A stretch of DNA of 32,000 bases from Candidatus Electronema aureum (GCA_004284765.1 NQJD01000003.1:90451-122450), one strand, 5' to 3'; positions 10,353-25,117 are shown, counted from the first letter of the stretch. Numbers and translations are program-made. The notes: generated by a model from the letters alone, not told the origin.

Positions 10353-10512
10353 TTCCTTCCTTTGAGATCATGAGGCAAGAAAGTAAACTTTTTCATAGCG
10401 AAACTATTTGATAGGTTTTAAGCTCAAGCGTGGTGCTAGGCCGAGAGTCCGCACTGAAAAGTGCGTGAAAAACATAGCATACAATTTCCAAACAAATCAA
10501 GCAGAAAACCTG

Positions 10513-10926
10513 ATGGAACTCAGAGAGTTTGTCGAAATAGCATTGAAAGATATATTCGGCGGAACAAAGGATGCCCAAAAGCAGATTTTATACGGCGAGA
10601 TTATTCCGAACAAAGATGGGAAAACCGGCGAGGCTGACATTGAGTTTGAGATAGCGGTTAAACCTGAAAACAACAAATTAGTTGTGGTTATCCCGCCAGC
10701 TCCTCCGGCTCCTAATTTGAGCAAGGTGAAATTTAAAATACCTGTGCGGCTCCCAAAGAGACGAGGAGGTTTCCTGAGTCACGTAATTGAATATTATATC
10801 ATAAAGAGAAGGAAGCAAAAAGCAATGCCTGTGCCTGATGAATCTCAATCTCCGCCACAGCCCGCAGATGCGGCGACAGACGCGAAAGATGAGCCAAAAC
10901 CGCCTTCTGAGGGGGAAAGGAAATGA
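10513..10926 (+). CDS. Hypothetical protein; N-terminal ~80 aa weakly resemble a trypco2-type effector-associated domain, with a Pro/Lys/acidic tail
   Basis: The track ORF starts at TTG 10408, and the first ATG is 10513 (MELREFVEIALKDIFGG...). An N-terminal helix followed by short strands (ADIEFEIAV, SKVKFKIPVRL) recalls trypco2 proteins. This is a pattern-level resemblance only. There is no clear SD. Confidence 0.35.
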   Translation: MELREFVEIALKDIFGGTKDAQKQILYGEIIPNKDGKTGEADIEFEIAVKPENNKLVVVIPPAPPAPNLSKVKFKIPVRLPKRRGGFLSHVIEYYIIKRRKQKAMPVPDESQSPPQPADAATDAKDEPKPPSEGERK

Positions 10927-11116: not shown

Positions 11117-11494
11117 ATGAATTGGACACATTATGGATTCCCTGAAAATTGCCCGCCAAATGATGCGAGAGAGTACGAAGGATTGATTTATGTGTTTGTA
11201 AAGCATAGTCCACCAGTCTCTGATGATTTTCGTACAGCTCACGATAAGAAAATACATCCAGACGGAGACCCGTGCCAAAGACGATCAATTTCTTGTGGAA
11301 CTGATATAGATTATTTGAATAAGACAGCAATATTATATCCTATCTTCAAAAAATGGCAAAAAGCTGTCGGGAAAATCAATTACGATGACGGTCTTATAAA
11401 ACAAACAGGAACTCAGTCTCTTCATTATAGTTTTTGGATATCGCCAGAAAAAAGAGAGAATTTTAACAAATTATTCGAGATAATTGAATTATGA
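11117..11494 (+). CDS. Hypothetical 125-aa protein (AT-rich orphan cassette, gene A)
   Basis: The ORF starts at ATG 11117. A perfect TATAAT (11103-11108) lies only 8 nt upstream, so the transcript may be leaderless. The stop overlaps the next start as ATGA. I recognise no domain. Confidence 0.5.
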   Translation: MNWTHYGFPENCPPNDAREYEGLIYVFVKHSPPVSDDFRTAHDKKIHPDGDPCQRRSISCGTDIDYLNKTAILYPIFKKWQKAVGKINYDDGLIKQTGTQSLHYSFWISPEKRENFNKLFEIIEL

Positions 11495-12624
11495 ATTTCA
11501 ATTGGCAGGATTATCGTCAGAAGATTCCAAGTTTTTTTTCTCCTGGAAAACATTTTTTAACTCTTATGGAGTACGAATTTCCATTACTCTTTATATCTTC
11601 AGCAGAAGAGAGTCTCTATTTAAATTATTTTATCGATGAAGATGAATGTGGAATAATTAGATATCTACATGTTCCGATCTCTATTATGAAAATTAGAGCA
11701 TTGGCATCAGGAGGGATTGCACTGTATGATTGCATAAATGCTGAAAATATTCATATATATGATCTCAACCAAGATGGAAACGTATCGTTTGTCGCTGAAT
11801 TAGATTTCTCTAATATCCCAACAGATGCTTTACCCCCAAAAGAAGAAAAAATTCCTGCTCTATCTAAAGATATAATTAATTCAGTTTTATACGGTTTTGA
11901 CCCTGGCGAGCTATGTTTCATACTGTCAAGTAAAACCACTTCAAAACACACGCTATCATTCAATAAACTTTCGAATTTTCTAAAAACTACTCAAAATTTA
12001 GTTTCAAAATTACCATTATACAATAAAGCTGTAGATAGATGTATAACTTCAGACGATTACGAACTCAGTGCTGTTGCTCTTAAAGCAGCATCGTTCGCAG
12101 TCACAGCTACAACAGAGAATGAAAGCGCAAAAAATGCAATTTCTACCTACATTCCAGAAATAACTAATCTTTTTTTGAAAAGTTCTCCCGATGACATTCG
12201 GCGTTATTTTGATTTAATACCAAAAGAATTAATTTTAGCTTTCTTTGAATATTACAAGGAAATATTAAGTAATAAATATGAATTTATACTGCAACACAAG
12301 AGTGGATCGATGTATTTAAATTATTCCGACGTTGAAAAAATAAAGCGAAATGTTAATAATGCAAATTATTCAAAAAAGGAATATCTCGAAAAAGAAGGCT
12401 ATTTAATCGGAGCGAATTTAAATACGAATTCTTTCTATTTTGAAGATATAGAAAAAAATATATACAAAGGAAAAATGTCTTCTGATTTCCTCACTTCACG
12501 CTCAGAGGTAACTCTGTCAAAAATAACTTGCAATGCTTCATTTAAAATCGAGACAGAAATGAAATTTTCAAAATTTACACATTTTTATGAACTTCTAAAG
12601 ATAGATGAATCTGATCATCATTAA
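11491..12624 (+). CDS. Hypothetical 377-aa protein (AT-rich orphan cassette, gene B)
   Basis: A long uninterrupted ORF in very AT-rich DNA, where stops are frequent by chance. It is translationally coupled to gene A (ATGA at 11491-11494). It has no TM segments and no motif I recognise. Confidence 0.55.
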   Translation: MNFNWQDYRQKIPSFFSPGKHFLTLMEYEFPLLFISSAEESLYLNYFIDEDECGIIRYLHVPISIMKIRALASGGIALYDCINAENIHIYDLNQDGNVSFVAELDFSNIPTDALPPKEEKIPALSKDIINSVLYGFDPGELCFILSSKTTSKHTLSFNKLSNFLKTTQNLVSKLPLYNKAVDRCITSDDYELSAVALKAASFAVTATTENESAKNAISTYIPEITNLFLKSSPDDIRRYFDLIPKELILAFFEYYKEILSNKYEFILQHKSGSMYLNYSDVEKIKRNVNNANYSKKEYLEKEGYLIGANLNTNSFYFEDIEKNIYKGKMSSDFLTSRSEVTLSKITCNASFKIETEMKFSKFTHFYELLKIDESDHH

Positions 12625-12814
12625 GATGATATAAGGGCTTTTAATGATAGCTCCTCGCGCTACGCTCCCTCCTTGGTAAAGATCAGCTCACCGATCGTCT
12701 CGTTAACGGTTCCCCACGTCAGCACAAAGCCGTTCGCCGAAACCGAGATGCTGTGAGAAAATAATCACCCCGAATAGGCTGTGCCTATTTATCCTGAACG
12801 CATCCCTGCTCGGC

Positions 12815-12850
12815 AATAAAACGCAAGCCGGGGCAAGAATTCACCCCGGC
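12815..12850 (-). terminator. Rho-independent terminator of the Ter/kinase/ATPase operon
   Basis: The minus strand reads GCCGGGG-tgaattcttg-CCCCGGC followed by TTGCGTTTTATT. The stem arms are 12827-12833 and 12844-12850. It begins 28 nt after the ATPase stop. Confidence 0.55.
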
Positions 12851-12877
12851 ATTAAACAAGGTTGTCAGCTGTCTCTC

Positions 12878-15565
12878 TTAGACTGTTTTCTTGTGCTTGC
12901 TGAAAAGATATTTTCTCGCAAGATCAAAAGGAATAATTCCCACAGAAAAGACAACAACCCAGAACCAATCCTGAATACCAAGGGAAACTGTTCTGAATAC
13001 TTCGCCGCCTATGTAGGTGATGATGACCTGAATGATAAAGATCATGCTCACCACTTTCAGAAATCCCTTGTTGGCAGCGAGATGATCAAAAAGGTTCAAT
13101 CCTTCTACGCGGACATTGAACTTGTTGAAGTTGCTTAAGAACACGAACACCCCGAAAAAGGCGGTCATGAAGATTTCCTCAGTGGCAAAAAGTCCGCGAA
13201 TACTGTCCGCCTTTAAAAAGGACACGCAAATCGCGGTAGTGAAAAAGCCGTTGAACAGGATGGACTGCCACATGCTGGATGTGATGATCTTTTCATCCCG
13301 TTTTTTCGGTTTTTCCTCCATGTATTCAGGCAGTGGCGGTTCTCCTGAAAAGGCTAAGGCAGCTAAGGAATCCATAATCAGATTCACCCAGAGGAGCTGA
13401 ATCATGGTCAGCGGCAACTCGAAACCTAAAAAGGGTCCGAGAAAGGTGATAGAAATCGCGGATACGCTGACCGTGAGCTGAAAGGTGATGAATTTCTGAA
13501 TGGACCGATAAATAGTCCGGCCATAATGCACCGCGCTGGCAATAGAGCGGATATTGTCATCAAGCACAACAATGTCTGAGGCTTCTTTTGCCACCTCAGT
13601 GCCACTGCCGAGTCCGAAACCGATATCAGCGGCACTCAAGGCCGGACTATCGTTGACTCCGTCACCAGTCATGCCGACTACCATGCCCATTTCCTGAGCT
13701 ATCTTCACCAAACGAGATTTGTCTGAAGGAAAACATCTTGCCACAACGCGCAAGCGAGGAAGAATACCTTTCAGCTTCTCATCAGAAATATTGGTCATCT
13801 CTTCAGAGGTTAAAATAATATCCTCTGCTGAACTGATTAGCCCAGCATCTTTAGCTATCGCTTCTGCTGTACCTTTGCGGTCGCCGGTAATCATGACCAC
13901 TTGAATTCCAGCACTGTGTAACTCTTTGATAGTGACAGCAGAGTCAAGACGCAGATCATCGCGGATCATTGCAAATCCAAGCAGGCAGAGATGATCTTCA
14001 ATGTCGTCTAAACTTTCTGGGATATCCTCTTCGGTCAAGGCAAGGCCGATCAAACGAAAGCCCTTGTCGCCTTTGCTGTCAATCTCCTTAAAGATAGCCT
14101 CTTTTTTTGAGGCTAAAAGAGCTGTAAGATTTCCTTGGCTATTGTAGAATGAACTAGATTTATTGAGAATTCTTTCTGGTGCCCCCTTGAGATAGGTCAT
14201 CCGTTGACCATCCTTCTCTTGTAGGCGAACTGCGGAAAATTTCCGGGAAGAATTGAAAAGCAGTTCATCTACCTGCTCAAAGGATTTCTCTTCATACTGA
14301 CATTCTTTGATATCTGCCCGGACGAATTTCAACAACGCACGGTCAGTGCTGTTGCCGCCTACAATCCGTTCAGATTCTTTATTCGCATTGCAATTCACCA
14401 CACAGGAAGTGTTCTCTCGCAGCGAGACATCGAGCAGATGAGCATTTTTCCTCGGCAGCTCCTCGCAGGAATTGTACTGAATCATAGCAGTTCCGGTTTC
14501 TTCATCGGCCACCGCAAGGAAGCCCACGGTTTCCATCTGCCCTTTGGTGATAGTACCTGTTTTATCAGTAAAAAGGAGATTAAGGCTACCAGAAGTCTCT
14601 ACACCAAGCAGCTGCCGTACCAGCACGTTGGATTTGAGCAGCTTCCGCATGTTCTGTGCCAAAACCACGGCAATCATCATCGGCAGACCCTCTGGAACAG
14701 CCACAACAATAATGATCACCGCCAGAATCAGGGCGATGGCAAGATCGTAAATCAGCTTGTGCCAATTGGCAATATAGGCGGCCATGGCCGCTGCCTCGCC
14801 GCCGTTGTCCAAATAAATTGCTTTAAACATGAAAACCACAGCAATCAGCGGTGCGGCAATATATCCAAACAAGGCAATACGGTCGGCCAGATGTGCCAGC
14901 TTTACCCGCAGTGGCCCAGGACGCTCATCGGTTTTCAATCCTTCAGCCAATTTACCCAAATGCGTCTTGTCACCAACCTGCTGCACCTCCATGACTGCTT
15001 CGCCGTCTTCAATAATTGTTCCTCTGAACACAGCATGAGGGTCTTCCAGATTGGCAGTATCTGCTGCACCAGGGATTTTAGTCCGCGCCTCTGGCTCGCC
15101 AGTCAGGGCAGCCTGACTCACTTTGACTTTGCCCTGAATGAGAGAGCCATCTGCCGGAATTTTATCTCCTGGCTGGAGAAGAATCATATCTCCGACCACT
15201 ATGTCATCAATGCTGATAACAGACACGCTGTTATCTCGGAAAACATTGACTCTAATTCTGGAGGCCTCTTCTTGGAGCTTCTGAAAAGTTTGCTCATTTT
15301 TGAATTCAGAAATCGTTGCTACTAACGCAGCCAAAACAACCGCAGCAGCAATACCAATCCCTTCATACCATTCAGCAAATCCAAGCAGAGCTAAAAGGGT
15401 GACAATAACCAAGGCAACTGTCAGAATGACAATCATTGGGTCTTTGAAATTGTCAATCAACTTATCCCAGAATGTTTCAGTCTCTACTGTGCTGATCTGG
15501 TTAGAGCCATGCGCAACTCTGGAGGTCATGACTTCCTGATGTGAAAGCCCTTTAACGTGATACAT
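12878..15565 (-). CDS. P-type (type II, Ca2+-translocating) cation ATPase
   Basis: The motifs are LTGEPEA, VAVPEGLP (TM4 Ca-site type), FTDKTGTITKG (phospho-Asp), MITGDRKGTA and MTGDGVNDSPAL. I place the start at ATG 15565 because AAGGAG lies 8 nt upstream. The track start, ATG 15610, would overlap the kinase gene by 8 nt. Confidence 0.85.
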   Translation of the reverse strand: MYHVKGLSHQEVMTSRVAHGSNQISTVETETFWDKLIDNFKDPMIVILTVALVIVTLLALLGFAEWYEGIGIAAAVVLAALVATISEFKNEQTFQKLQEEASRIRVNVFRDNSVSVISIDDIVVGDMILLQPGDKIPADGSLIQGKVKVSQAALTGEPEARTKIPGAADTANLEDPHAVFRGTIIEDGEAVMEVQQVGDKTHLGKLAEGLKTDERPGPLRVKLAHLADRIALFGYIAAPLIAVVFMFKAIYLDNGGEAAAMAAYIANWHKLIYDLAIALILAVIIIVVAVPEGLPMMIAVVLAQNMRKLLKSNVLVRQLLGVETSGSLNLLFTDKTGTITKGQMETVGFLAVADEETGTAMIQYNSCEELPRKNAHLLDVSLRENTSCVVNCNANKESERIVGGNSTDRALLKFVRADIKECQYEEKSFEQVDELLFNSSRKFSAVRLQEKDGQRMTYLKGAPERILNKSSSFYNSQGNLTALLASKKEAIFKEIDSKGDKGFRLIGLALTEEDIPESLDDIEDHLCLLGFAMIRDDLRLDSAVTIKELHSAGIQVVMITGDRKGTAEAIAKDAGLISSAEDIILTSEEMTNISDEKLKGILPRLRVVARCFPSDKSRLVKIAQEMGMVVGMTGDGVNDSPALSAADIGFGLGSGTEVAKEASDIVVLDDNIRSIASAVHYGRTIYRSIQKFITFQLTVSVSAISITFLGPFLGFELPLTMIQLLWVNLIMDSLAALAFSGEPPLPEYMEEKPKKRDEKIITSSMWQSILFNGFFTTAICVSFLKADSIRGLFATEEIFMTAFFGVFVFLSNFNKFNVRVEGLNLFDHLAANKGFLKVVSMIFIIQVIITYIGGEVFRTVSLGIQDWFWVVVFSVGIIPFDLARKYLFSKHKKTV

Positions 15566-15602
15566 GCAGTCTATTCTCCTTGCGTTAAAGCTATGCGGGA
15601 AA

Positions 15603-17105
15603 TCATGCATCCACCAACTGGATGTGCGCTAATCTACCGCCATTTTCTTTTGAAAACAAAATCTGACTGTTGTCGCTGAGGGCGATTCTGCTGCCGGGCG
15701 GAACCGGCTGCTTGCTGGCAAGATCAATCAAGCCGGGCAAACGCTCATTGACCAACAGCCATGTGCTGTTGTGAAAAATAAAATATCCAACTCGCTGCCT
15801 GTCCTGCAAAGACAGCCGTTCGTTGGGTACAATGTTTCGATTGACATGCCAAGGAAAAAGCGACTGACCAGTATAAACCATCAAACGATGATTGTCTGGC
15901 AAAAACTTGCCGTCATGGCGGCTGGAATAAAGATTGAGGACTGGCAGCTTACCCTTGTACGCTGTTCCACAAAACGGGCATTTGGGCGATTTAGTATTGT
16001 CAAAGACATACCATTTCTGCTCGCACTGCGGATTGGCGCAAGGCTGAAGCAAATCAACCGTCTTGATCAAAGCCTGCTCCCATTCATCTGCTGTGGGCCG
16101 TTTTTCGGGGCAATGCAGCCCGTCAACAAATGCCTGCTGGAAAAGTTTGCTCAGATACGGCCCGGTGATCTGGCAAGGCAAAGCAGCGGTGTCCTTCCAA
16201 GGTAGTTCTAAGGGCTTGAGATTGTCCAAGCGAATTTTATTAGAACGATCAGCCAGATGCTCAACAAAGAGGGCGCGTTCGCCCATTGACAGGTCTTCAT
16301 CCCGCTGCGGGTCGTCAAGATCATGCACCTTGTCCCCGCGCAAAGGATGGCGAAGCAAAAGGTACATGTAGATCAGCACTGCTAAGGCGTGCCGGTCGGT
16401 GGCAATGGAGGGCAATTTTCGGTTCAGGTCTGTTCTGTCTAAGCGACAGGTCTTGATCACCTCTGGGGCAATGAAATCCGGTGTGCCTACCACATCCGGG
16501 GGGAATTTTCCCGGTACTACCAAACCGTCAATGTCGATGATGCAGGCATGGCCACCTGCCGGATCGATCAGCACATTTTTATAGGAAAGATCAGAATGTG
16601 CCAGCCCGGCAGCGTGCATCCTCCGCACAGCCCGACTGAGCAAAATTGAAATCCGCAGATAATCAAGCCAGCAGCCGCGTTCCGCAGGATCAAGATATTT
16701 GTTCCTGTTGCTTGGCGAGGCAAACCATTTACCTTCTTTTTCTCTGCCCTTGATCTTGAGAAAATCGCTGTTGACTGAACCTGTTGCAAAGAAGAAGTGA
16801 TTCTGATAGGTAGATACTACTACGCCGATCCTGCCCTTGTCATCTTCAACCATTTGGCTGGGCCAGCAGAATAGATTCTCCCAGTATGCGCCGCCTTCCT
16901 GATTAAAAATCCGCTCACGATAGACCCCGGTGATCATTTCAAGCCGTTCCTGCGCCTGTCTGTCCTGCTTGTCCCGGAAAAAAGCGACAACATGCTTGCG
17001 GTCAGGGGTGAAATACACGTCCTTCATCCCACCGGAGCCAATGATCTCATCAAGATATTCGACAATTGTCCCGTTCTTTGCTTTAGCCTTGCGCACTTGA
17101 ATCAT
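15603..17105 (-). CDS. Ser/Thr protein kinase-like protein with a C-terminal Zn-ribbon and FHA-like module (TerY-P triad kinase type)
   Basis: Kinase motifs are a G-loop (IGSGGMKDVY), a catalytic loop (HSDLSYKNVLI), IIDIDG in the DFG position and GTPDFIAPEV as the APE motif. The Zn-ribbon CANPQCEQK...CPFCG follows. The tail (GYFIFHNSTWLLVN...LSDNSQILF) looks FHA-like. The start overlaps the PP2C stop as ATGA (17102-17105). Confidence 0.75.
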   Translation of the reverse strand: MIQVRKAKAKNGTIVEYLDEIIGSGGMKDVYFTPDRKHVVAFFRDKQDRQAQERLEMITGVYRERIFNQEGGAYWENLFCWPSQMVEDDKGRIGVVVSTYQNHFFFATGSVNSDFLKIKGREKEGKWFASPSNRNKYLDPAERGCWLDYLRISILLSRAVRRMHAAGLAHSDLSYKNVLIDPAGGHACIIDIDGLVVPGKFPPDVVGTPDFIAPEVIKTCRLDRTDLNRKLPSIATDRHALAVLIYMYLLLRHPLRGDKVHDLDDPQRDEDLSMGERALFVEHLADRSNKIRLDNLKPLELPWKDTAALPCQITGPYLSKLFQQAFVDGLHCPEKRPTADEWEQALIKTVDLLQPCANPQCEQKWYVFDNTKSPKCPFCGTAYKGKLPVLNLYSSRHDGKFLPDNHRLMVYTGQSLFPWHVNRNIVPNERLSLQDRQRVGYFIFHNSTWLLVNERLPGLIDLASKQPVPPGSRIALSDNSQILFSKENGGRLAHIQLVDA

Positions 17106-18850
17106 AACAGCTCGTTCTCCTTGTAGAGCAAGGCGATAGTCCGGTCATCATGATTGCCCGGCGACCAGAAAGAAAGCCAGTTCATCAAATTGGCAGCAGT
17201 TTTTCCTGATTCAGCAGACAGCTGGTTTTGAATCGTTTTTTGCCAGAATTGATCCCAGCACTCGCTTTGGCTCAACCTGTGATCGGTTTCAAAAATCGGA
17301 TCCGTGATTCCGTCTGTAAGCAAAATCAGCGCGGTCATCGTATCAAAAGACGCAAAGGATATCCGCTGCATGATATCTTCACCGTTATTAGCCTCTGGAT
17401 CGAGAAAACGGGTCTGTCCTGCATATTCGCCGCTGTCAGCCTGCCCTAACAGCGTTACTGAGCGACCTTCTTGATATACAGCCATGCCACCGTCGCCGAT
17501 CCAATATCCGACCACGAAATGTTTGCCTTTTATCTCTCTATGGGCTGCCAGCAATAGCGTAGCATAAAAATCACGAAACTTGCTCTCTTCTTTTTTACTG
17601 GTCTGATGAATGGTATTGATTGCAGCGTAAACCGCTTGGCTAAATACAGTATAGAGCTTCTGTCTGAGTAGCTTTGCTGTCTCATCTGATTGGCCCGCCT
17701 GTTCCCAAGCAGATACGGCCTCAAAGAGAGCATCGTTGTGCTCCGTCAGCTTTTCCGCCAGCAGTTTTGACGATTCCTGCACTGCTATCTTGGCACCTTC
17801 TCTGGAATACTGACAGCTACCTGCGCCATCAGACACAGCAAGAATATGCCATTGTTGAGGATGCTTGCCAATCAGAGCAAAATCATCATCCCGGCATTTT
17901 CCTTCATGGGCATGGGACCTACCTCGCTTGCTCGCGGCGACGAGCTTCCAGCCGTTCTGTCCGTCCTCCTCGTGGGCATCCTCATCCTTTTTCCAGAATT
18001 TCACGCTGGTATCTGAAGGAATATCTTTCCATAACGATTTCGGATCATGATTCACCACAAAAGTGTGGTAAGCGAAACCACTGCCACCCGTGGTTAAGAT
18101 ATAGGTGACTTTAAATTTGAATTCTCCCGGTTTGGATGGTGTTCCGCTCAGGCATTGCGTTTCGCTGTCATAGCAGACACCAGCCTCTTCCGTGCCTTCA
18201 ATTTTGGTGACTTTGCTGAATTGGCCACCATTATGAAAAATCTTCTCAGAATACCATGTATTGACCATTGCATTTGGAATTATGAGCATCATTCTTGTTT
18301 GATGTGAATCATGATTCATCTGTAGATTCTGAGTCGGCATGTCTATTTCGTGTACATTGCGTATTTTTTCATAATTTCTATCATTAGAAATGATAGCTTT
18401 TTCTATCCCTGTTGTTTCTGTATCATTTGTATTTTGTTCATCTGCACGTAGGGGAAGAAAATCTTTTGCCCCTACATCGGCCCGGCATAGCTCAATTCGC
18501 GGCTCATGCAAGAGGTCTATTGTAATGCGTTCTTGCTCTATTTGCTTTTCATCATCAATCGACCTGTGTTCAGATTGGCTTTTATCCACCACCAGCATAA
18601 CAGCATCTTTATCTCCATCTTCTATAGCTGGCTCGCTTATTTTTTTTACGGCATCATCAGTCATCTGTTTGTTCTCTTTCCAGCTGCACCACTTTTTAAA
18701 GATATCTTCTGAAATAACCCTCAACTGGGCAAGAATATCTTCGCCTGCAAACTGACATAGTTGATCAGGTAAAGGATGCTCATCATAGATTACTAACAGT
18801 TCTCGGCAGATTGAATGGAATACCTTTTTTTCCTCGCCCGCATCTTTCAT
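17102..18850 (-). CDS. PP2C-family protein phosphatase with a long N-terminal extension
   Basis: The C-terminal ~280 aa carry PP2C_2-like motifs (ASKRGRSHAHEGKCRDDDF, LAVSDGAGS, YWIGDGG, LLTDGITDP). The N-terminal ~300 aa are acidic and include an Ig-like segment (SGTPSKPGEFKFKVTY). There is an ATGA overlap with the upstream vWA gene (18847-18850). Confidence 0.7.
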   Translation of the reverse strand: MKDAGEEKKVFHSICRELLVIYDEHPLPDQLCQFAGEDILAQLRVISEDIFKKWCSWKENKQMTDDAVKKISEPAIEDGDKDAVMLVVDKSQSEHRSIDDEKQIEQERITIDLLHEPRIELCRADVGAKDFLPLRADEQNTNDTETTGIEKAIISNDRNYEKIRNVHEIDMPTQNLQMNHDSHQTRMMLIIPNAMVNTWYSEKIFHNGGQFSKVTKIEGTEEAGVCYDSETQCLSGTPSKPGEFKFKVTYILTTGGSGFAYHTFVVNHDPKSLWKDIPSDTSVKFWKKDEDAHEEDGQNGWKLVAASKRGRSHAHEGKCRDDDFALIGKHPQQWHILAVSDGAGSCQYSREGAKIAVQESSKLLAEKLTEHNDALFEAVSAWEQAGQSDETAKLLRQKLYTVFSQAVYAAINTIHQTSKKEESKFRDFYATLLLAAHREIKGKHFVVGYWIGDGGMAVYQEGRSVTLLGQADSGEYAGQTRFLDPEANNGEDIMQRISFASFDTMTALILLTDGITDPIFETDHRLSQSECWDQFWQKTIQNQLSAESGKTAANLMNWLSFWSPGNHDDRTIALLYKENELL

Positions 18851-19902
18851 CCTAATGACCTCACGATATCAACACGTTCATTTTTTTCCATCGGCACCAT
18901 CTCAAGATGCTGCTTGCACCAAGGACATTGCGCTCGTACTGCGCCATCCACGCAAAACAAGCGTCCGCATGAACAGAGGCCAAGAGCGGAAGGATTACCG
19001 CAGCAAGGACAGCTAGCTTGGCCGAGCAAATTATTCAGATCGACGTTCGCCTCGATTTCATTCACGGCGACAGACCAGTCAAAATACGTTTCGTCAATCA
19101 GATAACAGCCTGTCAACCGATAGCAATAGCCATTGTCTCCACTTTCCCGCAGCTCGGCGGCGGAAGAAAAAAAAATGCGCTCATATTTAAGCAAATAAGG
19201 CGTTCCGCGCTGCTGACAGCGACCAACAAAAATGGCAAAATTTTCATCAGAACTATGCGCATCACCAGCAAAAGACAAAATCCGCTCGGCCTTTTCAAGC
19301 GATATGGGCTGATTTTGTTCTCCGCGCTGCTGCACCATGATGCTTCGCGATTTCACTGACATACTCATCCAGTCGATAAAACGGGAAAAATCCGCATTGT
19401 TTTCTCCACTGTAGGTCAGGACGTGATCCGCAAAGCGAGATAAGGTGCCGGAAGCAGCGTATTTGCCCAAACCGATTGCAATGAGCATCACCCGGCCTGC
19501 ATATTTGCTTTTCCATGCCCTGATAGCTTCCTCGCAGTCGTCTGTGGGCTTGCCGTCGGTCAGTAAATAAACCAAAGGCTTCCAGTCTCCTTTGCGTTCC
19601 CGCGTGGTTGGCTGAACCTGCATATCTATTTCCCGCATCAGGTGTGTCAAGGCTCTGCCCAGCGCAGTACCAGAACCCAAGGGCAGGCGCGGCGGATAGA
19701 AAATCGGCAAATCCACAAGCGGAACCAATGTTTTCACTTTACCGGCAAAGGCGACAACCGAAAGAAAAACCGTTTCCAAGGCATGAGGGTCTTGGCGCAG
19801 CTTGGTGATGAGCTGATCAAGCCCCTGTTCAAGATACTGCAAAGGCTCTCCGATCATGGAGTCTGAAACATCAAGCACGAGAAAAATTGGCAGACGGCGC
19901 AT
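18847..19902 (-). CDS. terY: vWA-domain protein with a C-terminal Cys-rich TerY-C-type metal-binding domain
   Basis: The MIDAS motif is LDVSDSM...GSGTALG...LLTDGKPTD. The C-terminal cysteine cluster is CPCCGNPSALGLCSCGRLFC...CPWC. GGAGGAG lies 5 nt upstream of ATG 19902. Confidence 0.75.
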   Translation of the reverse strand: MRRLPIFLVLDVSDSMIGEPLQYLEQGLDQLITKLRQDPHALETVFLSVVAFAGKVKTLVPLVDLPIFYPPRLPLGSGTALGRALTHLMREIDMQVQPTTRERKGDWKPLVYLLTDGKPTDDCEEAIRAWKSKYAGRVMLIAIGLGKYAASGTLSRFADHVLTYSGENNADFSRFIDWMSMSVKSRSIMVQQRGEQNQPISLEKAERILSFAGDAHSSDENFAIFVGRCQQRGTPYLLKYERIFFSSAAELRESGDNGYCYRLTGCYLIDETYFDWSVAVNEIEANVDLNNLLGQASCPCCGNPSALGLCSCGRLFCVDGAVRAQCPWCKQHLEMVPMEKNERVDIVRSLG

Positions 19903-19937
19903 TGCATCTCCTCCAGCAACGATGTTGTTTAGCGGAA

Positions 19938-20576
19938 TTAGATCACAATCTGGATTTCAGCGGGGGGCGGTGGTAACACATCCGCAGAACCAGCACCGAT
20001 GCTGGAGCTTCTCATCTCTACGCTGGCTGAAACCCACTTGAAAAAGCTCGAAAAGGCCGTGCTGTCCGTGGTGTCAAGGCTGACAATCGTGTCAGTTAGC
20101 TTGCGCAGCTGGTCAATTTTGGCCTTGGGGCCAGCAGCGCAGGCGATGATTCTGCCGAAATGGCAATTTTTTATCTGCGGCAGTATCTCATCATAGCGGG
20201 CAACGTCTGACGGACTGCCGTCAGTCATCAAAAAAAGCATGGGCCGCCAGTCACCTTTGCGCTCGCTGGTGCTGGAAATGATGTCTCGTTTTGTCCGCTC
20301 AACAATCAGGGCCAAAGCCTCGCCGGTGTAGGTCGGTCCTGACCGAGGGCAGATGATCTCCCCGATTTGTACCTGAGATAGCGGTGTCAGCGGAAATAGC
20401 TCTTTAACCTCAATATCAAAGGTGATAACGGACAGATGTACAGAGTCAAGCGCGTGCGGGTCCTGCCGCAACGCAGTGAGCATCGCCTGCAATCCGACAT
20501 TGACAGACTGAATCGCTTCTCCGTACATGGAACCTGATGTGTCAATGGCAATATAAATCGGCAATCTGCGGGACAT
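19938..20576 (-). CDS. terY: TerY-type vWA-domain protein
   Basis: A 212-aa ORF with MIDAS motif IDTSGSM...TYTGEAL...LMTDGSPSD and the PPPP-containing C-terminal tail typical of TerY. AGGAG precedes the ATG. Confidence 0.8.
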   Translation of the reverse strand: MSRRLPIYIAIDTSGSMYGEAIQSVNVGLQAMLTALRQDPHALDSVHLSVITFDIEVKELFPLTPLSQVQIGEIICPRSGPTYTGEALALIVERTKRDIISSTSERKGDWRPMLFLMTDGSPSDVARYDEILPQIKNCHFGRIIACAAGPKAKIDQLRKLTDTIVSLDTTDSTAFSSFFKWVSASVEMRSSSIGAGSADVLPPPPAEIQIVI

Positions 20577-20625
20577 ACTTACTCCTGTGGGCAGTACGGG
20601 TAGATAAAATCAACTAGCAATTCTG

Positions 20626-21426
20626 TTACCTTGTCACCGGATACATGCTGGTGTTAAATGCTCCCAGACGTTTGTACACTTCTTCGGTCGGAGCAATCCA
20701 CACCATGCCGGGGCCTGTAAAGGTCTGAAGCAGCCCTTCGCCGCTGGTCGCGGATTGGAGAAAACTTTTTCCAGATTTTTCCGCACGAAATTCAACGCTG
20801 GCAGTTCTGGCAAAGGCAAAACTGCCATCAACGGAGAGTTTTTCTCCTGATTTCAGTTGATAAATCAACAACTCGGCAGTAGGCACCGGTGAAACCAGCA
20901 CAACTACACCTGTGCCTTTGATCTGGGTCTGAAAAAGCCCTTCTCCGCCAAACAGCGCACTGGAAACATTCCCTTGCATCTTAGCCGTGACTTCCAAATC
21001 AGCCGAAGCGCAATAGAATGCACCTTTATCAACAATCAGTCCATCTTCCTCAATATTGAATAATGAATAATGCCCGAAAGTCGGTTCTAAATAAACTTCG
21101 CCGCTACCTTTAATTCGAGATTGAAACAGCGTTTCTCCGGTGGTGAACTTACGCATCAGACCTTTGCTCAGTCCCTGTTGTATATCAGATTTCAGCTGCA
21201 AGTCACCTTTCATGAAATAGAGCGCACCCGGTTCTATCAGGATTTCACTCCGTTCAAGCGTGACGCGGATCATTTTAAGATGGATATCAGCCTTGTTGGC
21301 AAAAAATACCTTTTCCGCCACATAGAGATTGTCCGATCCTTTGAGAGACTTGTACTGCACAACTTCAAACTTTGCCCCTGGAATCTGTTCTGTTTCGACA
21401 ACTTCAAATATATCGGATTCATTCAT
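20626..21426 (-). CDS. AIM24 (DUF124/TIGR00266) family protein
   Basis: It has the threefold internal GE..F signature of the family: TGETLFQSRIKGSGEVYL, FGGEGLFQTQIKGTGVVVL and SGEGLLQTFTGPGMVWI. Confidence 0.75.
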   Translation of the reverse strand: MNESDIFEVVETEQIPGAKFEVVQYKSLKGSDNLYVAEKVFFANKADIHLKMIRVTLERSEILIEPGALYFMKGDLQLKSDIQQGLSKGLMRKFTTGETLFQSRIKGSGEVYLEPTFGHYSLFNIEEDGLIVDKGAFYCASADLEVTAKMQGNVSSALFGGEGLFQTQIKGTGVVVLVSPVPTAELLIYQLKSGEKLSVDGSFAFARTASVEFRAEKSGKSFLQSATSGEGLLQTFTGPGMVWIAPTEEVYKRLGAFNTSMYPVTR

Positions 21427-21602
21427 ACTATTTCTCCTCTGTTTTTCCTGATGCTCTCATTGCTGATGGAATCTTGTTCATGATTATTTCAATTGAACCT
21501 CACATTTTATCCTGCGTTGCGTGTTAGTTCGACCGTAGGGAGAAATCTAAACGGCAAACATCTTTCTTCAACCCAAAAACACTGTAACCGTGCCGCCGTA
21601 GA

Positions 21603-22241
21603 TCAGGCAACAATATTAATCTCCGGTGGAGGCGGCGGGAGTTCATCCAGCTTGGACAAATCTTTTTTGCTCAGATCGATCTTATGACTGCTGGTGCTGA
21701 CGCTGGCGGAAATCCATTGGAAAAATTTTTTGATTGTTGCAGAATCAGCCGTGTCAAGTTGCACAACAATGTCTGATATTTCTTTCAGCACGCTGAGATC
21801 AGCATCAGCACCGGCAGCGCAAGTAATAATCATGCCGGGTTTGCTTTTTTTCAGCTCCTCCAGACTTGGCCGCCAGTCATCCGTAGGCGAACCGTCGGTC
21901 ATCAAAAAAATCAACGGTTTCCAGTCGCCCCGACGTTCAGGGGTGGTTTTGATAACTTCGGTATTAATTTTTTCAGCGGTCAGTTTCAGAGCCTTGCCCA
22001 GCGAGGTAACACCCTGCGCTTGAATATCAGGAGGCTGAAAACTGACCACATCGGTCAGCGGAACTAACTGTTTGGCATCAGTGTTGAAGGTGATAACACT
22101 GATAAAAGCAGTTTCCAAAGCATAAGGGTCTTGCCGCAAGGTTGAAGCAAGTACCTGAACTCCATTTTTTACCGCTTCAATGGCCTCGCCAGTCATTGAA
22201 CCAGAATTGTCAAGCACAAGATACACAGGAAGTCGTCTCAT
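21603..22241 (-). CDS. terY: TerY-type vWA-domain protein
   Basis: A 212-aa ORF with MIDAS motif LDNSGSM...GVTSLG...LMTDGSPTD and a PPPPPE tail. It is a clear paralog of 19938..20576. Confidence 0.8.
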   Translation of the reverse strand: MRRLPVYLVLDNSGSMTGEAIEAVKNGVQVLASTLRQDPYALETAFISVITFNTDAKQLVPLTDVVSFQPPDIQAQGVTSLGKALKLTAEKINTEVIKTTPERRGDWKPLIFLMTDGSPTDDWRPSLEELKKSKPGMIITCAAGADADLSVLKEISDIVVQLDTADSATIKKFFQWISASVSTSSHKIDLSKKDLSKLDELPPPPPEINIVA

Positions 22242-22275
22242 TTAATCCTCTTAACTTAAGTAGTTATTGGTTCTC

Positions 22276-22304
22276 ATGATGCTGCTCTATTCAAGCAGCA
22301 TCAT
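22276..22304 (-). promoter_or_regulatory. Intercistronic 10-bp perfect stem-loop between terD and terY
   Basis: ATGATGCTGC (22276-22285) pairs with GCAGCATCAT (22295-22304) around a 9-nt loop. It starts 23 nt after the TerD stop. No U-tract follows on the transcribed (minus) strand. Confidence 0.4.
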
Positions 22305-22326
22305 ATTTATTTCGAAAACATGAAAA

Positions 22327-22914
22327 TCATCCCGCATTGAGTCCGTAGGTTATGCATGCAGCACCAAGACCTCCTGCATATCCTTGACCAACTGCTGTAA
22401 ATCTCCACTCTCCGTCTTTTTTATACAGCTCTCCAAAGACCATCGCTGTTTCTGTCGAATAATCTTCAGTCAGATCAAAACGAACAACCTCTTGGTTATT
22501 TTCATCATTAACAACGCGGATAAAGGCGTTGTTCACTTGGCCGAAATTCTGGCGGCGGCGTTCAGCATCATAGATTGTGCAGACCACTGCCATTCTTACA
22601 ACATCCGGGGACATGCTTTCTAACTTGCCGAGATCAACTCGGATGACCTCATCGTCACCGTCTCCACCGCCAGTCAAGTTATCGCCCATGTGTTCAACCG
22701 CGCCGTTTGCTCCTTTGAGGTTATTGTAAAAAATAAAATCCTGCTCACTGCGGGCTTTTCCCGCTGCATTCAGAAGAAAAACCGAAGCGTCGAGATCAAA
22801 ATCAGTGCCGTCAGTTGCCCGCTCATCCCATCCAAGCCCTATAAAAATCTTTGTAAGTCCGGGAGATTCTTTTGACAAAGATATTCTTCCGCCTTTTTCC
22901 AAGGTAATGCCCAT
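22327..22914 (-). CDS. terD: TerD-family stress protein
   Basis: A 195-aa ORF reading MGITLEKGGRISLSKE...IGLGWD...DFDLDASVFLL. It carries the canonical Ca2+-binding loop GDNLTGGGDGDDE. Confidence 0.9.
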   Translation of the reverse strand: MGITLEKGGRISLSKESPGLTKIFIGLGWDERATDGTDFDLDASVFLLNAAGKARSEQDFIFYNNLKGANGAVEHMGDNLTGGGDGDDEVIRVDLGKLESMSPDVVRMAVVCTIYDAERRRQNFGQVNNAFIRVVNDENNQEVVRFDLTEDYSTETAMVFGELYKKDGEWRFTAVGQGYAGGLGAACITYGLNAG

Positions 22915-22951
22915 GATTATACCCTTTGGTTATTGATAAAGAGAATGAATT

Positions 22952-23536
22952 CTACAGTGAATGCGAGATTATCGGCATAAGATCGTTGAAGGTTCTTCCA
23001 GCTCCCCATTCTCCAATAGCCTTGAATTTCCATTCACCGTTATGGCGATATAGTTTAGCGATAACGAGACCTGTTTTACTTCCACCTTCCACGCTAAGGT
23101 CATATTTTGCAATTATCTTGCCGGTCTTGTTATCCTTCAGAATGCAGAACGCATTGGGAACACCGTCAAATGAATCATTCAAGAAACTATTGACGGTAAA
23201 CATTAAGGTGCTGATGTTGCTTGGCACGGCGTTGAGCCGGACAAGAATTTCCTCATTGGGATCATCCGCCTGTCCTCCTCCGCTCCGATCATCTCCGCTG
23301 TGCGACACGGAGCCGTCCTTGCTTTGAAGCTGCCGAAACCAAACCGCATCTTTTAAGATTTTTTGTTCGTCAAATAAGAGACATGAGGCATCCAAGTCAA
23401 CATCCACCAATTTGGAAAGACCCAAGAAGCCTTTTTCTTTTCTCTGGCCCCAGCCTAATCCCAACACGGCATCAGTTAAATGGGGAGCCTCTTTTGCCAA
23501 TGAAATATTCGCACCTTTGGAAAGATTGATCGACAT
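22952..23536 (-). CDS. TerD-family protein (divergent paralog)
   Basis: A 194-aa ORF reading MSINLSKGANISLAKE...LGLGWG...DVDLDASCLLF. The Ca-loop region has diverged (GDDRSGGGQADDPNEE). AAGGAG lies upstream of ATG 23536. Confidence 0.85.
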   Translation of the reverse strand: MSINLSKGANISLAKEAPHLTDAVLGLGWGQRKEKGFLGLSKLVDVDLDASCLLFDEQKILKDAVWFRQLQSKDGSVSHSGDDRSGGGQADDPNEEILVRLNAVPSNISTLMFTVNSFLNDSFDGVPNAFCILKDNKTGKIIAKYDLSVEGGSKTGLVIAKLYRHNGEWKFKAIGEWGAGRTFNDLMPIISHSL

Positions 23537-23560
23537 AGCAGCACTCCTTTTGTAGTTGAG

Positions 23561-23881
23561 TTATTTGATCGCGTTGACTGTAATGATTATTCTTCCTAAT
23601 GTTATTTTGCTCCCATTTTTCAACAGGGTATTTTTTTTATTCATGTAATCAGTGTAAGTTATCGCCTTGTCTTTAAAAGAAATTTCTCCAACAACAGAAG
23701 AAAAACCATTTGTCGCTGGAAGATAAATATCCGCCTCTTGAGAACTACCAATAATGATTGGCCTTTTCCCTAAACTTACTGTAGATTTCTCATTTTTTTG
23801 CCATTCTATTTCTAACCATGCTTCTTTGAAGAAATCTTCGCTTAAATCAATCATTAATCCAACAAAAAAACCTATTGCCAT
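23561..23881 (-). CDS. Small protein with a short hydrophobic N-terminus and an FHA-like domain
   Basis: A 106-aa ORF and the first gene of the operon. The FHA-like pattern is VSLGKRPIIIGSSQEADIYLP...SSVVGEISFKDKAITYTDYMNKKNTLLKNGSKITLGRIIITV. An in-frame stop lies 9 codons upstream of the ATG, so the ORF cannot be longer. The gene is very AT-rich. Confidence 0.45.
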   Translation of the reverse strand: MAIGFFVGLMIDLSEDFFKEAWLEIEWQKNEKSTVSLGKRPIIIGSSQEADIYLPATNGFSSVVGEISFKDKAITYTDYMNKKNTLLKNGSKITLGRIIITVNAIK

Positions 23882-23971
23882 TGCGCCTGTAATTCTTTCT
23901 ATTCCTTCTTTAACATACTGTGAATTTGAGAATCATTATCAGTAAATAATATAAATTTATTGATGATTACT

Positions 23972-23999
23972 AAAAATAATACGAATTATTTAATTGTCA
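23972..23999 (-). promoter_or_regulatory. Candidate sigma70-type promoter of the Ter operon
   Basis: The minus strand has TTGACA (23999-23994), a 16-nt spacer and TATTTT (23977-23972) in a strongly AT-rich tract. It lies about 90 nt upstream of ATG 23881. Confidence 0.3.
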
Positions 24000-24235
24000 A
24001 TAAAAATATACCTTATTCTCTCCTTTTTTCTTCACTCGGAGAAGTCTAACCGTCTACCGCCTGCTGGGTAGCTTTGCAACGTGATAGAGTTTTTTCGTTC
24101 CAATACCAGTGCGTTAGAACAAAATCATGCTGCTTCAGATAAAAATTAATGCGGACATTCCCATGCTGGCATATAGTAAGCAACAGAGCAATCAATGGTT
24201 GCGGACTAAGCTGCGGACTAATCGGCCTTATTTTG

Positions 24236-24263
24236 TTGCATATCCCGCCTCTGTAGGTATAAT
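24236..24263 (+). promoter_or_regulatory. Candidate sigma70-type promoter of the pssA operon
   Basis: TTGCAT (24236-24241), a 16-nt spacer and TATAAT (24258-24263). It lies about 80 nt upstream of ATG 24344. Confidence 0.4.
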
Positions 24264-24343
24264 TCGCTGCATACGACAGGCCGACATTGTGCGCTTTCGG
24301 CCTGCTTCCCGTCTTCTGATTTCTCTTGCCATCGAGTCGCGTT

Positions 24344-25117
24344 ATGGAATTGCCTCAGCCCAATCGCTCTTTTTTACTGCCTTGCACCCTGACTATTGCC
24401 AGTCTCTTCAGCGGCTTTTATTCAATGGTCGCCTCGATCAACGGCCATTTTTACGCAGCAGCCGTGGCTATCATCGTAGCAGCCATCTTTGACGGATTAG
24501 ACGGCAGAGTGGCCCGCATGACCGGCTCCACCTCTGGCTTTGGAATGCAGCTTGACTCGCTCTGCGACATGGTTTCCTTTGGTGTGGCTCCAGGCCTGCT
24601 TGCCTATCTTTGGGCATTGAAGCCCTATGGTCGCTACGGCTGGCTAGCCGCTTTTCTCTACGTTGCCGCCACTGCCCTGCGCCTAGCTCGCTTCAACACC
24701 TTAGCTACTGCCCCGCCTCCGCCAGACAAGCATAAGAGCTACGATTTCGTTGGCCTGCCTTGCCCTGCCGCTGCCGGTGCCGTCGCCACTACGGTGATGT
24801 TCTTCCGGTTCCTCGGGGCGCAGGGTACAGTGAAGCATATTCCAATCCTGCTGCTGGTCTATCTACTTTCATATCTGATGATTTCCTCGCATCGTTACCT
24901 GAGCTTTAAGAAAGTTCACATTCCCCGCGAGCGACGTTTTCAGGCGGTAGTCGGTATCATTTTGGTTATGATGTTCCTCGCCTCTGAGCCGCCTGTGACG
25001 CTGTTCGTCACCGCGCTTTGCTATGCCGCTTCTGGGCCGCTGCTGGAGTTGTATCAGATGGCAAGAAGCAAGAAGGCGCAGGAACCACCGCCGCCTGATG
25101 CAGGCGCGTCCGCCTAA
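24344..25117 (+). CDS. pssA: CDP-diacylglycerol--serine O-phosphatidyltransferase
   Basis: It has the CDP-alcohol phosphatidyltransferase motif DGLDGRVARMTGSTSGFGMQLDSLCD and a polytopic profile. The track start, 24326, is TTG. The first ATG is 24344. Confidence 0.8.
   Translation: MELPQPNRSFLLPCTLTIASLFSGFYSMVASINGHFYAAAVAIIVAAIFDGLDGRVARMTGSTSGFGMQLDSLCDMVSFGVAPGLLAYLWALKPYGRYGWLAAFLYVAATALRLARFNTLATAPPPPDKHKSYDFVGLPCPAAAGAVATTVMFFRFLGAQGTVKHIPILLLVYLLSYLMISSHRYLSFKKVHIPRERRFQAVVGIILVMMFLASEPPVTLFVTALCYAASGPLLELYQMARSKKAQEPPPPDAGASA

Follow-up and report, generated by a model that had tools for sequence, protein, structure and literature searches.

Does a calcium pump encoded at the end of a bacterial stress-response operon belong to that system, or does it only lie next to it? 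The question is raised by Candidatus Electronema aureum, a freshwater cable bacterium in which a cluster of Ter and TerY-P genes ends with the gene of a predicted Ca2+-exporting P-type ATPase. The cluster occupies positions 12878-23881 of a 32,000-nt stretch of genomic DNA (GCA_004284765.1, NQJD01000003.1:90451-122450); the whole stretch is referred to as the window, and positions are counted within it. At odds slightly better than even (about 0.55), the locus is read here as a cable-bacterium variant of a Ter/TerY-P stress-response cluster, with a probable role in defence, whose membrane component would be a recruited Ca2+ efflux pump.

The locus is a real, well-delimited gene cluster. Listing of the open reading frames (ORFs) of the window gives ten co-directional ORFs, all on the minus strand, at exactly the coordinates of an initial annotation that had been made from the sequence alone. 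The domain composition proposed there is borne out by Pfam, which recognizes two TerD, three VWA, TerY_C, AIM24, PP2C_2, Pkinase and P-type ATPase domains, and the TerY-P triad of vWA protein, PP2C phosphatase and kinase is present as claimed. The ten genes are:

23881-23561, minus strand: g1, ORF of 106 aa
23536-22952, minus strand: g2, TerD paralog, 194 aa
22914-22327, minus strand: g3, TerD, 195 aa
22241-21603, minus strand: g4, TerY1-type vWA protein, 212 aa
21426-20626, minus strand: g5, AIM24, 266 aa
20576-19938, minus strand: g6, TerY2-type vWA protein, 212 aa
19902-18847, minus strand: g7, TerY3, vWA plus TerY_C, 351 aa
18850-17102, minus strand: g8, PP2C_2 phosphatase, 582 aa
17105-15603, minus strand: g9, Ser/Thr kinase, 500 aa
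15610-12878 (910 aa), or from the ATG at 15565 (895 aa), minus strand: g10, predicted PMCA-type ATPase

The calcium pump and its linkage to the cluster

The last gene, g10, is predicted to encode a PMCA-type (IIB) Ca2+-exporting P-type ATPase. Its product scores 595.6 bits against the NCBIfam model of PMCA-type Ca2+ pumps (TIGR01517, cut-off 507.05 bits) and falls below the cut-off on the NCBIfam models of SERCA, PMR1, H+, Mg2+ and Na/K pumps. The full P-type ATPase domain set is recognized by Pfam, and the motifs DKTGT, VPEGLP and VNLIMD are in place. The nearest solved structures are those of Arabidopsis ACA8 (8QMP), human PMCA1 (6A69) and Listeria LMCA1 (6ZHF), PMCA-type (IIB) ATPases with which g10 shares the full domain set and the DKTGT, PEGL and NLIMD motifs; it differs in lacking the long calmodulin-binding tails of eukaryotic PMCAs and in its location inside a Ter operon, where its gene comes right after that of a Ser/Thr kinase. 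From the first ATG, at 15610, the junction between g9 and g10 is an overlap of 8 nt, and from the ATG at 15565 it is a gap of 37 nt. As an AAGGAG Shine-Dalgarno sequence precedes the ATG at 15565, this is the better start, and with it the 37-nt gap given in the initial annotation is right. In composition g10 is island-like, with a G+C content (GC) of 46.7% in comparison to 53% in the flanks.

Comparison with other loci was based on the best 80 of 565 confirmed loci in species-representative genomes, retrieved by a search anchored on the TerY_C protein and scored by tblastn with the ten window proteins and the annotated ter-island reference proteins of an IncHI2 plasmid; L-numbers are the labels of retrieved comparison loci. 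The ATPase had been annotated as a member of the cluster. Its link to the cluster is restricted to cable bacteria, where the adjacency of kinase and ATPase is conserved: three further genomes of the clade, though rearranged, retain it with a gap of 37-46 nt throughout. In GCA_026645415.1 (L087) the cluster is split by inserted genes and the PP2C-kinase-ATPase order is intact, and in GCA_976560315.1 (L090) only PP2C, kinase and ATPase are found at that site. Electrothrix sp. YB6 has kinase, ATPase, PRTase_2 and StiP, with a HAD-like gene, TerD and TerB (L089 8460-12679; 2.17 Mb), and a TerY_C-PP2C remnant located 0.9 Mb from the kinase-ATPase pair (L084 9671-13065; 3.03 Mb), where it adjoins DDE transposase fragments and toxin-antitoxin genes.

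A second kind of Ca2+ exporter is seen in other Ter clusters. In Candidatus Electrothrix aarhusensis the kinase is followed by PgpA, Na_Ca_ex (a Na+/Ca2+ exchanger, CaCA), PRTase_2 and StiP, and Desulfamplus magnetovallimortis has the same gene set after the kinase, plus a TerA-like gene. The ATPase of YB6, between kinase and PRTase_2-StiP, lies in the position held by the exchanger in Electrothrix aarhusensis. Homologous exchangers (35% identity) are present inside TerA-TerD-TerD-TerD arrays of two Pseudoalteromonas genomes and one Cellvibrionaceae metagenome-assembled genome (L022 3181-4209, L027 3101-4140 and L059 2290-3315), and no TerC was detected within the 10-kb flanks of these three. 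In Extensimonas (L021), TerC-TerB come directly after the kinase. Because two unrelated Ca2+ exporters have joined Ter clusters, the pump is likely to be more than a neighbour, and this is the main argument for its recruitment. By analogy, the recurrence of a non-homologous exchanger in Ter clusters supports the calcium idea independently; the linkage of the pump itself rests on one clade and on this analogy. A split between marine lineages with the exchanger and freshwater lineages with the pump was considered and dropped, as Electrothrix sp. YB6 carries the pump. The two functions also meet within one genome in jumbo gut ('Jug') phages, which encode several TerD proteins and, in a separate operon, a Ca2+-translocating P-type ATPase that is highly transcribed (PMC12880540).

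The shared core and its variable partners

The initial annotation regarded the operon as a composite distinct from the canonical ter locus. One part of this stands, as terZABC are absent from the window, and the other does not, as the six-gene core is a classical ter-island block. The ter islands of IncHI2 (R478-type) plasmids, Proteus and Serratia have the same order of vWA, (TerD paralog), vWA, vWA plus TerY_C, PP2C and kinase, with identities to the window proteins of 54-68% for vWA, 43-48% for TerY_C and 59-68% for the kinase, and TerD paralogs lie nearby in both. Since the core thus corresponds to the terY1-X-Y2-Y3-PP2C-kinase block, the window holds a variant of the ter locus and not a new composite. 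The locus is a lineage-specific variant of the known Ter/TerY-P system, and its new part is the predicted PMCA-type Ca2+-ATPase. The IncHI2 plasmid carries terZABCDE on one strand and, on the other, genes for PRTase, a hypothetical protein, StiP, HpcH, DUF4236, TerW, vWA, a TerD-family protein, vWA, TerY-C, PP2C and a disrupted kinase. In comparison, AIM24 replaces TerX in the window; TerW, a divergent terZABCDE(F) and the PRTase/ATP-grasp/StiP/HpcH metabolite module are missing; and the Ca2+-ATPase is added after the kinase. The absence of TerA, TerB and TerC from the window had been stated correctly: tblastn with the annotated IncHI2 references detected none of TerZ, TerA, TerB, TerC and TerW in the 32 kb, Pfam scans of the flanking ORFs showed none of them either, and PRTase and StiP were not found within the window by tblastn.

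Across the comparison set, vWA2, TerY_C, PP2C and kinase genes are contiguous in 65 of the 80 loci, and at least one TerD-family gene lies within 10 kb in 64; relatives of the TerY_C protein are found in 2,330 plasmid records. Electrothrix aarhusensis and Desulfamplus magnetovallimortis (L003, L004), whose clusters are directly related to that of the window, have the order TerD, TerD, vWA1, (TerD fusion), AIM24, vWA2, TerY_C, PP2C and kinase, and the window proteins are 72-88% identical to those of Electrothrix aarhusensis. These two clusters differ from the window in carrying PgpA, the Na+/Ca2+ exchanger, PRTase_2 and StiP after the kinase, with no P-type ATPase there.

The two TerD genes are of different types. 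Pfam recognizes both (PF02342, cut-off 25.3 bits), g2 with 154.9 bits and g3 with 266.7 bits, and they are 31% identical to each other. The product of g3 is a canonical TerD that aligns to Klebsiella TerD 2KXT (E = 3.5e-78) and retains the Ca2+-binding motifs DFDLDAS and GDNLTGGGDGDDE. Its acidic loops match the Ca2+-binding loops of Klebsiella TerD (DxDxS, GDN(R/L)TGxGDGDDE), and it is thereby a predicted Ca2+ binder. In g2, DVDLDAS is retained and the second acidic loop is partly degenerate, being altered to GDDRSGGGQADDPNEE; it is the paralog type that adjoins AIM24 in other loci, where the corresponding genes are 50-54% identical. The metal ion-dependent adhesion site (MIDAS, DxSxS) is intact in all three vWA proteins, as DNSGS in g4, DTSGS in g6 and DVSDS in g7. 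These proteins are 81-88% identical to those of relatives, and homologs of g4 in other loci show 54-86% identity. The TerY_C domain of g7, a Cys-rich metal-binding domain, scores 125 bits in Pfam; residues D11, S13 and S15 and eight Cys are invariant among 23 TerY_C homologs, and identity to the homologs is 42-72%.

AIM24 had been taken for a non-classical Ter partner, which did not hold. Clusters of ter genes containing AIM24 were already classed as 'group I', with a proposed TerD-AIM24 interaction (Anantharaman et al. 2012, as cited in PMC5822837), and the window matches this association of AIM24 with TerD. AIM24 is therefore a known Ter partner, and unusual here in position only. It adjoins TerD genes in 12 of the 80 loci, counting Electrothrix aarhusensis, and more remote homologs, 25-28% identical, are flanked by TerD paralogs in 11 loci of Beta- and Gammaproteobacteria, each adjoining a g2-type TerD or, in 2 loci, a TerD labelled TerZ. 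The g5 protein scores 158.1 bits in Pfam (cut-off 25.7 bits), aligns to PDB 1YOX at 1.8e-12 and is also related to 1PG6. Its score of 75.7 bits against NCBIfam TIGR00266 is under the cut-off of 96.6 bits, making it a member of the AIM24 family and not the TIGR00266 equivalog. It sits in the slot between terY1 and terY2, the usual place of the TerD paralog TerX: of 50 loci that have both the first and the second vWA gene, 38 carry TerX between the two.

The PP2C and kinase genes are the most tightly packed, g8 overlapping g7 by 4 nt and g9 overlapping g8 by 4 nt, and from this arrangement PP2C and kinase are probably translationally coupled. The phosphatase (PP2C_2, 128 bits in Pfam) has a poorly conserved N-terminal 300 aa, only its C-terminal half being conserved, at 31-64% identity; for the PP2C the range is 29-64%. 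The kinase scores 35.5 bits on Pkinase, just over the Pfam cut-off, and is 64-87% identical over all 500 residues among Desulfobacterota, Beta- and Gammaproteobacteria, which exceeds the conservation of its partner proteins; to the kinase of relatives it is 84-87% identical. Catalytic-loop motifs are retained in both enzymes. The kinase has a C-terminal zinc ribbon (CANPQC...CPFC), with C17, C22, C37 and C40 invariant among 28 homologs, followed by a conserved domain of ~115 aa for which no PDB match was found by sequence profile. An FHA-like fold was considered for this domain on motif resemblance and rejected, as there was no PDB match and hhalign against the g1 family gave 2% probability. 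In the N-lobe (GSGGMKDVYF...VVAFFRD) no Lys stands at the VAIK position and a near-invariant Lys is present in the Gly-rich loop, which suggests a catalytic lysine placed as in WNK kinases. As a further observation, a gene for PgpA (phosphatidylglycerophosphatase A) directly follows the TerY-P kinase in L003 (15736-16212), L004, L005 and L044, and also in L021; this recurrence hints at a membrane-lipid connection.

The small protein g1 had been described as FHA-like and as unknown among Ter partners. The first description is upheld by the predicted fold in spite of a sub-threshold sequence score (Yop-YscD_cpl, 17.6 bits in Pfam, cut-off 33.2 bits); as to the second, the family is a real TerD/TerY-P partner, of which the local copy is a truncated remnant. 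In the g1 family, 10 of 41 members match Yop-YscD_cpl at E <= 0.05 and one matches FHA. A single-sequence AlphaFold2 model with a predicted local distance difference test score (pLDDT) of 36 was replaced by one built with a 41-sequence alignment, which reached a pLDDT of 86.1; the top 50 Foldseek matches of this model in the PDB are all FHA domains (E down to 3.4e-5, TM-scores 0.54-0.69), and the domain is thus modelled with a true FHA beta-sandwich fold. At the GR and SxxH positions of canonical FHA domains the family consensus has ...GSS... and ...G.P...A..., as read from sequence with uncertain registration. As the consensus appears to be without the canonical pThr-binding residues, the g1-type domain may resemble YscD more than a phosphopeptide reader.

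In this genome, g1 is the 5'-truncated remnant of a membrane-anchored protein with several transmembrane (TM) helices and an FHA-like domain. It consists of half a TM helix and the FHA-fold domain, beginning within the helix, and homology extends 14 codons upstream of its ATG to 23923, where stop codons follow. GC is 32% overall and 28% at third codon positions, unlike the rest of the operon, and no Shine-Dalgarno sequence precedes it; the gene is missing at the equivalent position in a close relative. An exhaustive HMMER search retrieved 292 relatives, longer proteins with several TM helices to whose last ~100 residues g1 aligns over its full length; many of them are ~490 aa long with an N-terminal vWA domain. 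A full-length ortholog of 194 aa (59% identity) in L095 precedes TerDa-TerDb by 18 nt, the gene order being that of the window, and a member of the family follows the kinase in a Pseudoalteromonas ter cluster. In L096 (2740-4221; Joint Genome Institute metagenome 3300003874) the third TerY, of 493 aa and encoded immediately ahead of PP2C and kinase, joins its vWA domain to several TM helices and an FHA-fold domain of the g1 type, these replacing TerY_C. A membrane-anchored FHA-fold module thereby emerges as a recurrent TerY-P partner.

Several described systems share parts of this core. The TerY-P triad of Anantharaman, Iyer and Aravind (2012), as cited in PMC10542128, is matched in vWA, PP2C and a kinase with C-terminal zinc ribbon. 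Neither Ca2+ transporters nor a TM plus FHA module are mentioned as Ter partners in the available portions of PMC10542128 and PMC5822837, through which the 2012 survey is known here. The stand-alone TerY-P anti-phage system of Gao et al. 2020 (as given in PMC10542128) likewise has vWA, PP2C and kinase; its kinase is fused to an OB-fold, whereas that of the window has the zinc ribbon and the extra domain of ~115 aa. Archaeal ArnA/ArnB (PMC6509490, in part) and Deinococcus DRA0331-0334 (bioRxiv 10.64898/2026.01.23.701218, in part) combine vWA, FHA, Ser/Thr kinase and phosphatase as the window does, and ArnA/ArnB is a precedent for FHA-vWA interaction that depends on phosphorylation, as its FHA domain recognizes the vWA protein by a phosphorylated tail (PMC6509490). 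In contrast to these, the FHA domain of the window type appears to be without canonical pThr residues, and is membrane-anchored in intact relatives and truncated in this genome, and TerD or Ca2+ components are not mentioned in the accessible portions of the two accounts.

Calcium, defence and the rival readings

The calcium link of the cluster is plausible, and the anti-phage reading given earlier is circumstantial; for the locus as a whole, we infer calcium coupling and a role in defence. Klebsiella TerD binds Ca2+ (Pan 2011, cited in PMC8123226), a TerD-domain gene of Streptomyces affects Ca2+ homeostasis (Daigle 2015, cited in PMC8123226), and TerY-P has been predicted to be a metal-sensing phospho-switch that accompanies restriction systems (PMC10542128). 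Under the preferred reading, envelope damage, phage attack or chemical stress would raise cytosolic Ca2+ or another divalent cation. TerD proteins with AIM24 would bind Ca2+ and serve as its sensor or buffer, acting on or with complexes of the TerY vWA proteins. Kinase and PP2C would switch the assembly of these complexes, and where relatives have an intact copy of the membrane-anchored FHA-fold module, it could read this switch. The co-expressed pump would then export Ca2+, setting the baseline and resetting the signal, and would serve as the membrane transporter of cations, as TerC or a Na+/Ca2+ exchanger may do in other Ter clusters. A wider proposal, which is speculative and on present grounds improbable, is that Ter systems are Ca2+-signalling devices whose membrane component is an interchangeable exporter of divalent cations (TerC, CaCA exchanger or PMCA pump), that the TerY-P kinase and phosphatase directly gate the cable-bacterial pump, and that stress or phage would be read as a controlled Ca2+ transient sensed by TerD/AIM24 and TerY. 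If true, gating of the pump by kinase and phosphatase would parallel, in a bacterium, the control of PMCA by phosphorylation.

Evidence for a role in defence comes from context: lower GC, varying neighbourhoods, defence-gene inserts in a relative and a fusion of TerD with a restriction domain. Islands of ter genes give resistance to phage, colicin and tellurite (cited in PMC5822837). The accessory-island character claimed at first was confirmed, as GC is below that of the flanks and the chromosomal neighbourhood of the cluster differs in each relative. In GCA_026645415.1, MNT/HepT and SIR2_2 genes lie between terY1 and AIM24 (L083 5591-8498), and an fn3 protein, a type II DNA methyltransferase, a TPR/DUF4034 protein and Gabija lie between terY3 and PP2C (L083 11659-18996); this Gabija is complete (GajA 825 bits, GajB 539 bits), and defence systems use the Ter cluster as a landing pad. 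In Electrothrix aarhusensis (L003 7182-8459), a 425-aa TerD-HSDR_N_2 fusion is encoded between terY1 and AIM24. HSDR_N_2 forms the N-terminus of the R subunit in type I restriction, and the fusion is a direct link between TerD and a nuclease fold.

Several points weigh against the preferred reading. The initial annotation had set conservation of the neighbourhood as a test, and by it the exact ten-gene order is not conserved; a P-type ATPase is present in 0 of the 80 TerY_C loci. Orthologs of the ATPase in Desulfonema limicola and an uncultured relative (67-68% identity) are stand-alone genes of housekeeping type and adjoin methionine aminopeptidase. No Ter, TerY, PP2C or kinase neighbour was found at 53 more distant PMCA-type loci from metagenomes, a scan of mostly gut relatives (39-49% identity, one at 65%) that served as a negative control only. 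What follows the kinase varies in other lineages (TerD, ATP-grasp_Ter, PgpA, HAD, one TerC, one DUF475), by which a fixed transporter slot after the kinase does not hold as a general rule and the regularity of exporters is placed at the level of the cluster. As the four Ter-linked cases belong to one clade, the kinase-ATPase link may be a single ancestral juxtaposition that is still unbroken. The absence of TerC and TerB applies to the window, and the rest of the genome could encode either. The FHA step may not operate in this genome, since g1 is truncated and apparently without the canonical pThr-binding Arg/Ser/His. A PADLOC search had been put forward as a check for a defence system, and none was recognized among the ten proteins: at E <= 0.01 the two TerD, three vWA, AIM24, PP2C and ATPase proteins have no match, the kinase matches weakly to kinase models of other systems (PD-T4-6, mad6, MkoA), and g1 has a marginal match to PDC-M02A (E = 0.0032, 15.6 bits).

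The stand-alone orthologs outside the clade and the two surveys without an ATPase-Ter association are what would be expected of a passenger, an ordinary Ca2+ efflux pump that landed downstream of a self-contained TerD/AIM24/TerY-P system in a cable-bacterial ancestor and stayed uncoupled from it, whether expressed by read-through or on its own; similarity of the ATPases also broadly tracks taxonomy, which fits vertical descent. This explanation is rather unlikely, as the adjacency outlasts three different rearrangements of the cluster, the short gap to the kinase is conserved with no terminator between the two genes, and the GC of the ATPase is that of the island and not of the flanks. An unrelated Ca2+ exporter also follows the kinase in sister lineages (after PgpA and, in Desulfamplus, also after the TerA-like gene) and lies within the Gammaproteobacterial Ter arrays. 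Another possibility is that the locus serves a niche-specific Ca2+ or metal homeostasis and not immunity, the TerD buffers, TerY-P switch and pump protecting against surges of Ca2+ or Mn2+. Cable bacteria acidify the surrounding sediment and dissolve carbonates, by which Ca2+ in the pore water is raised. Linkage of the pump is restricted to these bacteria, TerD has the Ca2+ binding and the Streptomyces phenotype described above, PADLOC is silent, and the flanks hold housekeeping genes. Such a replacement of immunity is unlikely when set against the cluster of a close relative interleaved with Gabija, type II methyltransferase, SIR2 and MNT/HepT, the TerD of Electrothrix aarhusensis fused to a restriction-enzyme N-terminal domain, the phage and colicin resistance conferred by classical ter islands (cited in PMC5822837) and the TerY-P triads that accompany CoCoNuT restriction systems (PMC10542128). 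A calcium-stress role in cable bacteria is a serious alternative all the same, and need not exclude defence. Finally, truncation of g1, the lack of TerB, TerC, PRTase and StiP in the window and the broken cluster of YB6 beside transposase genes could point to a decaying, non-functional remnant from which TerZABC, the nucleoside-like metabolite genes and the 5' end of g1 have been lost. This is very improbable: the nine ORFs other than g1 are intact and have Shine-Dalgarno sequences, the MIDAS, PP2C, kinase, DKTGT and Ca2+-loop motifs are all retained, kinase and vWA proteins keep the high identities to relatives given above, and identical copies are present in independent sequencing runs.

Recruitment of the pump would matter because ter genes are among the most widespread accessory determinants of stress, phage and colicin resistance, and their mechanism has been obscure for decades. 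Binding of Ca2+ by TerD is known in vitro, and no genetic link between Ter and Ca2+ transport was found in the literature searched. Two unrelated kinds of exporter occur in Ter clusters, the P-type pump in cable bacteria and the Na+/Ca2+ exchanger in Desulfobacterota and marine Gammaproteobacteria. The attached Ca2+ pump supports the idea that Ter systems work through calcium, and the hypothesis is offered that Ter function depends on controlled Ca2+ export. A compact set of nine genes that dispenses with TerABC and the metabolite module offers a test bed for it; if the linkage is merely positional, the locus is just another ter variant.

Boundaries and surroundings of the operon

Successive ORFs from g1 to g9 are spaced by 24, 37, 85, 176, 49, 35, -4 and -4 nt. 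The other features of the locus are:

24000-23973, minus strand: promoter-like site, TTGACA-16 nt-TATTTT, 10 of 12 consensus matches and the top score of the region, a consensus match only
23923-23561, minus strand: g1 remnant including the upstream homology to full-length relatives
22304-22276, strand unassigned: palindromic hairpin with a perfect 11-bp stem, in the 85-nt gap between g3 and g4 (terD-terY1)
21427-21602, minus strand: variable slot, a 176-nt gap filled elsewhere by TerX, a TerD-HSDR_N fusion or an MNT/HepT plus SIR2 insert
12850-12827, minus strand: terminator-like hairpin, 10-bp stem with 7 G-C pairs and a T-rich tail

The promoter-like 5' end and the terminator at the 3' end of the initial annotation coincide with the best-scoring sites, at 23973-24000 and 12827-12850, in a region where the totals of promoter- and terminator-like sites are not above those of shuffled sequence. 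The former lies ~90 nt upstream of g1 in an AT-rich intergenic tract (38.7% GC), and the latter 28 nt past the stop codon of g10 as the strongest such site in 12400-24600, a range in which the site scan found no strong terminator inside the ten-gene block. The ten genes are a putative single operon, for which the common strand, gaps of at most 176 nt and the top terminator at the 3' end are indirect evidence. The operon has a GC of 46.8%, its flanks have 53.2% and 53.4%, and a neighbouring orphan cassette has 31.8%. Pfam scans identified the flanking ORFs as housekeeping genes.

Rfam and tRNA scans of the window gave no match, and the empty tRNA scan speaks against a tRNA-linked integration site. 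No att-like direct or inverted repeats were found at the flanks, the sole repeats being motifs common to the paralogous vWA genes, and megablast of the 11-kb block against E. coli genomes and plasmids returned no match. The orphan cassette (11117-12624, plus strand) consists of two ORFs, of 125 and 377 aa, that share an ATGA at their overlap, and is convergent with the end of the operon; it has no match in Pfam, PADLOC, PHROGs or PDB sequences. A further AT-rich ORF, at 10408-10926, is unmatched as well. Within the operon, the palindrome at 22276-22304 has no T-run on the minus strand; it might be an element of transcript processing or stability, or set the ratio of TerD to the downstream products.

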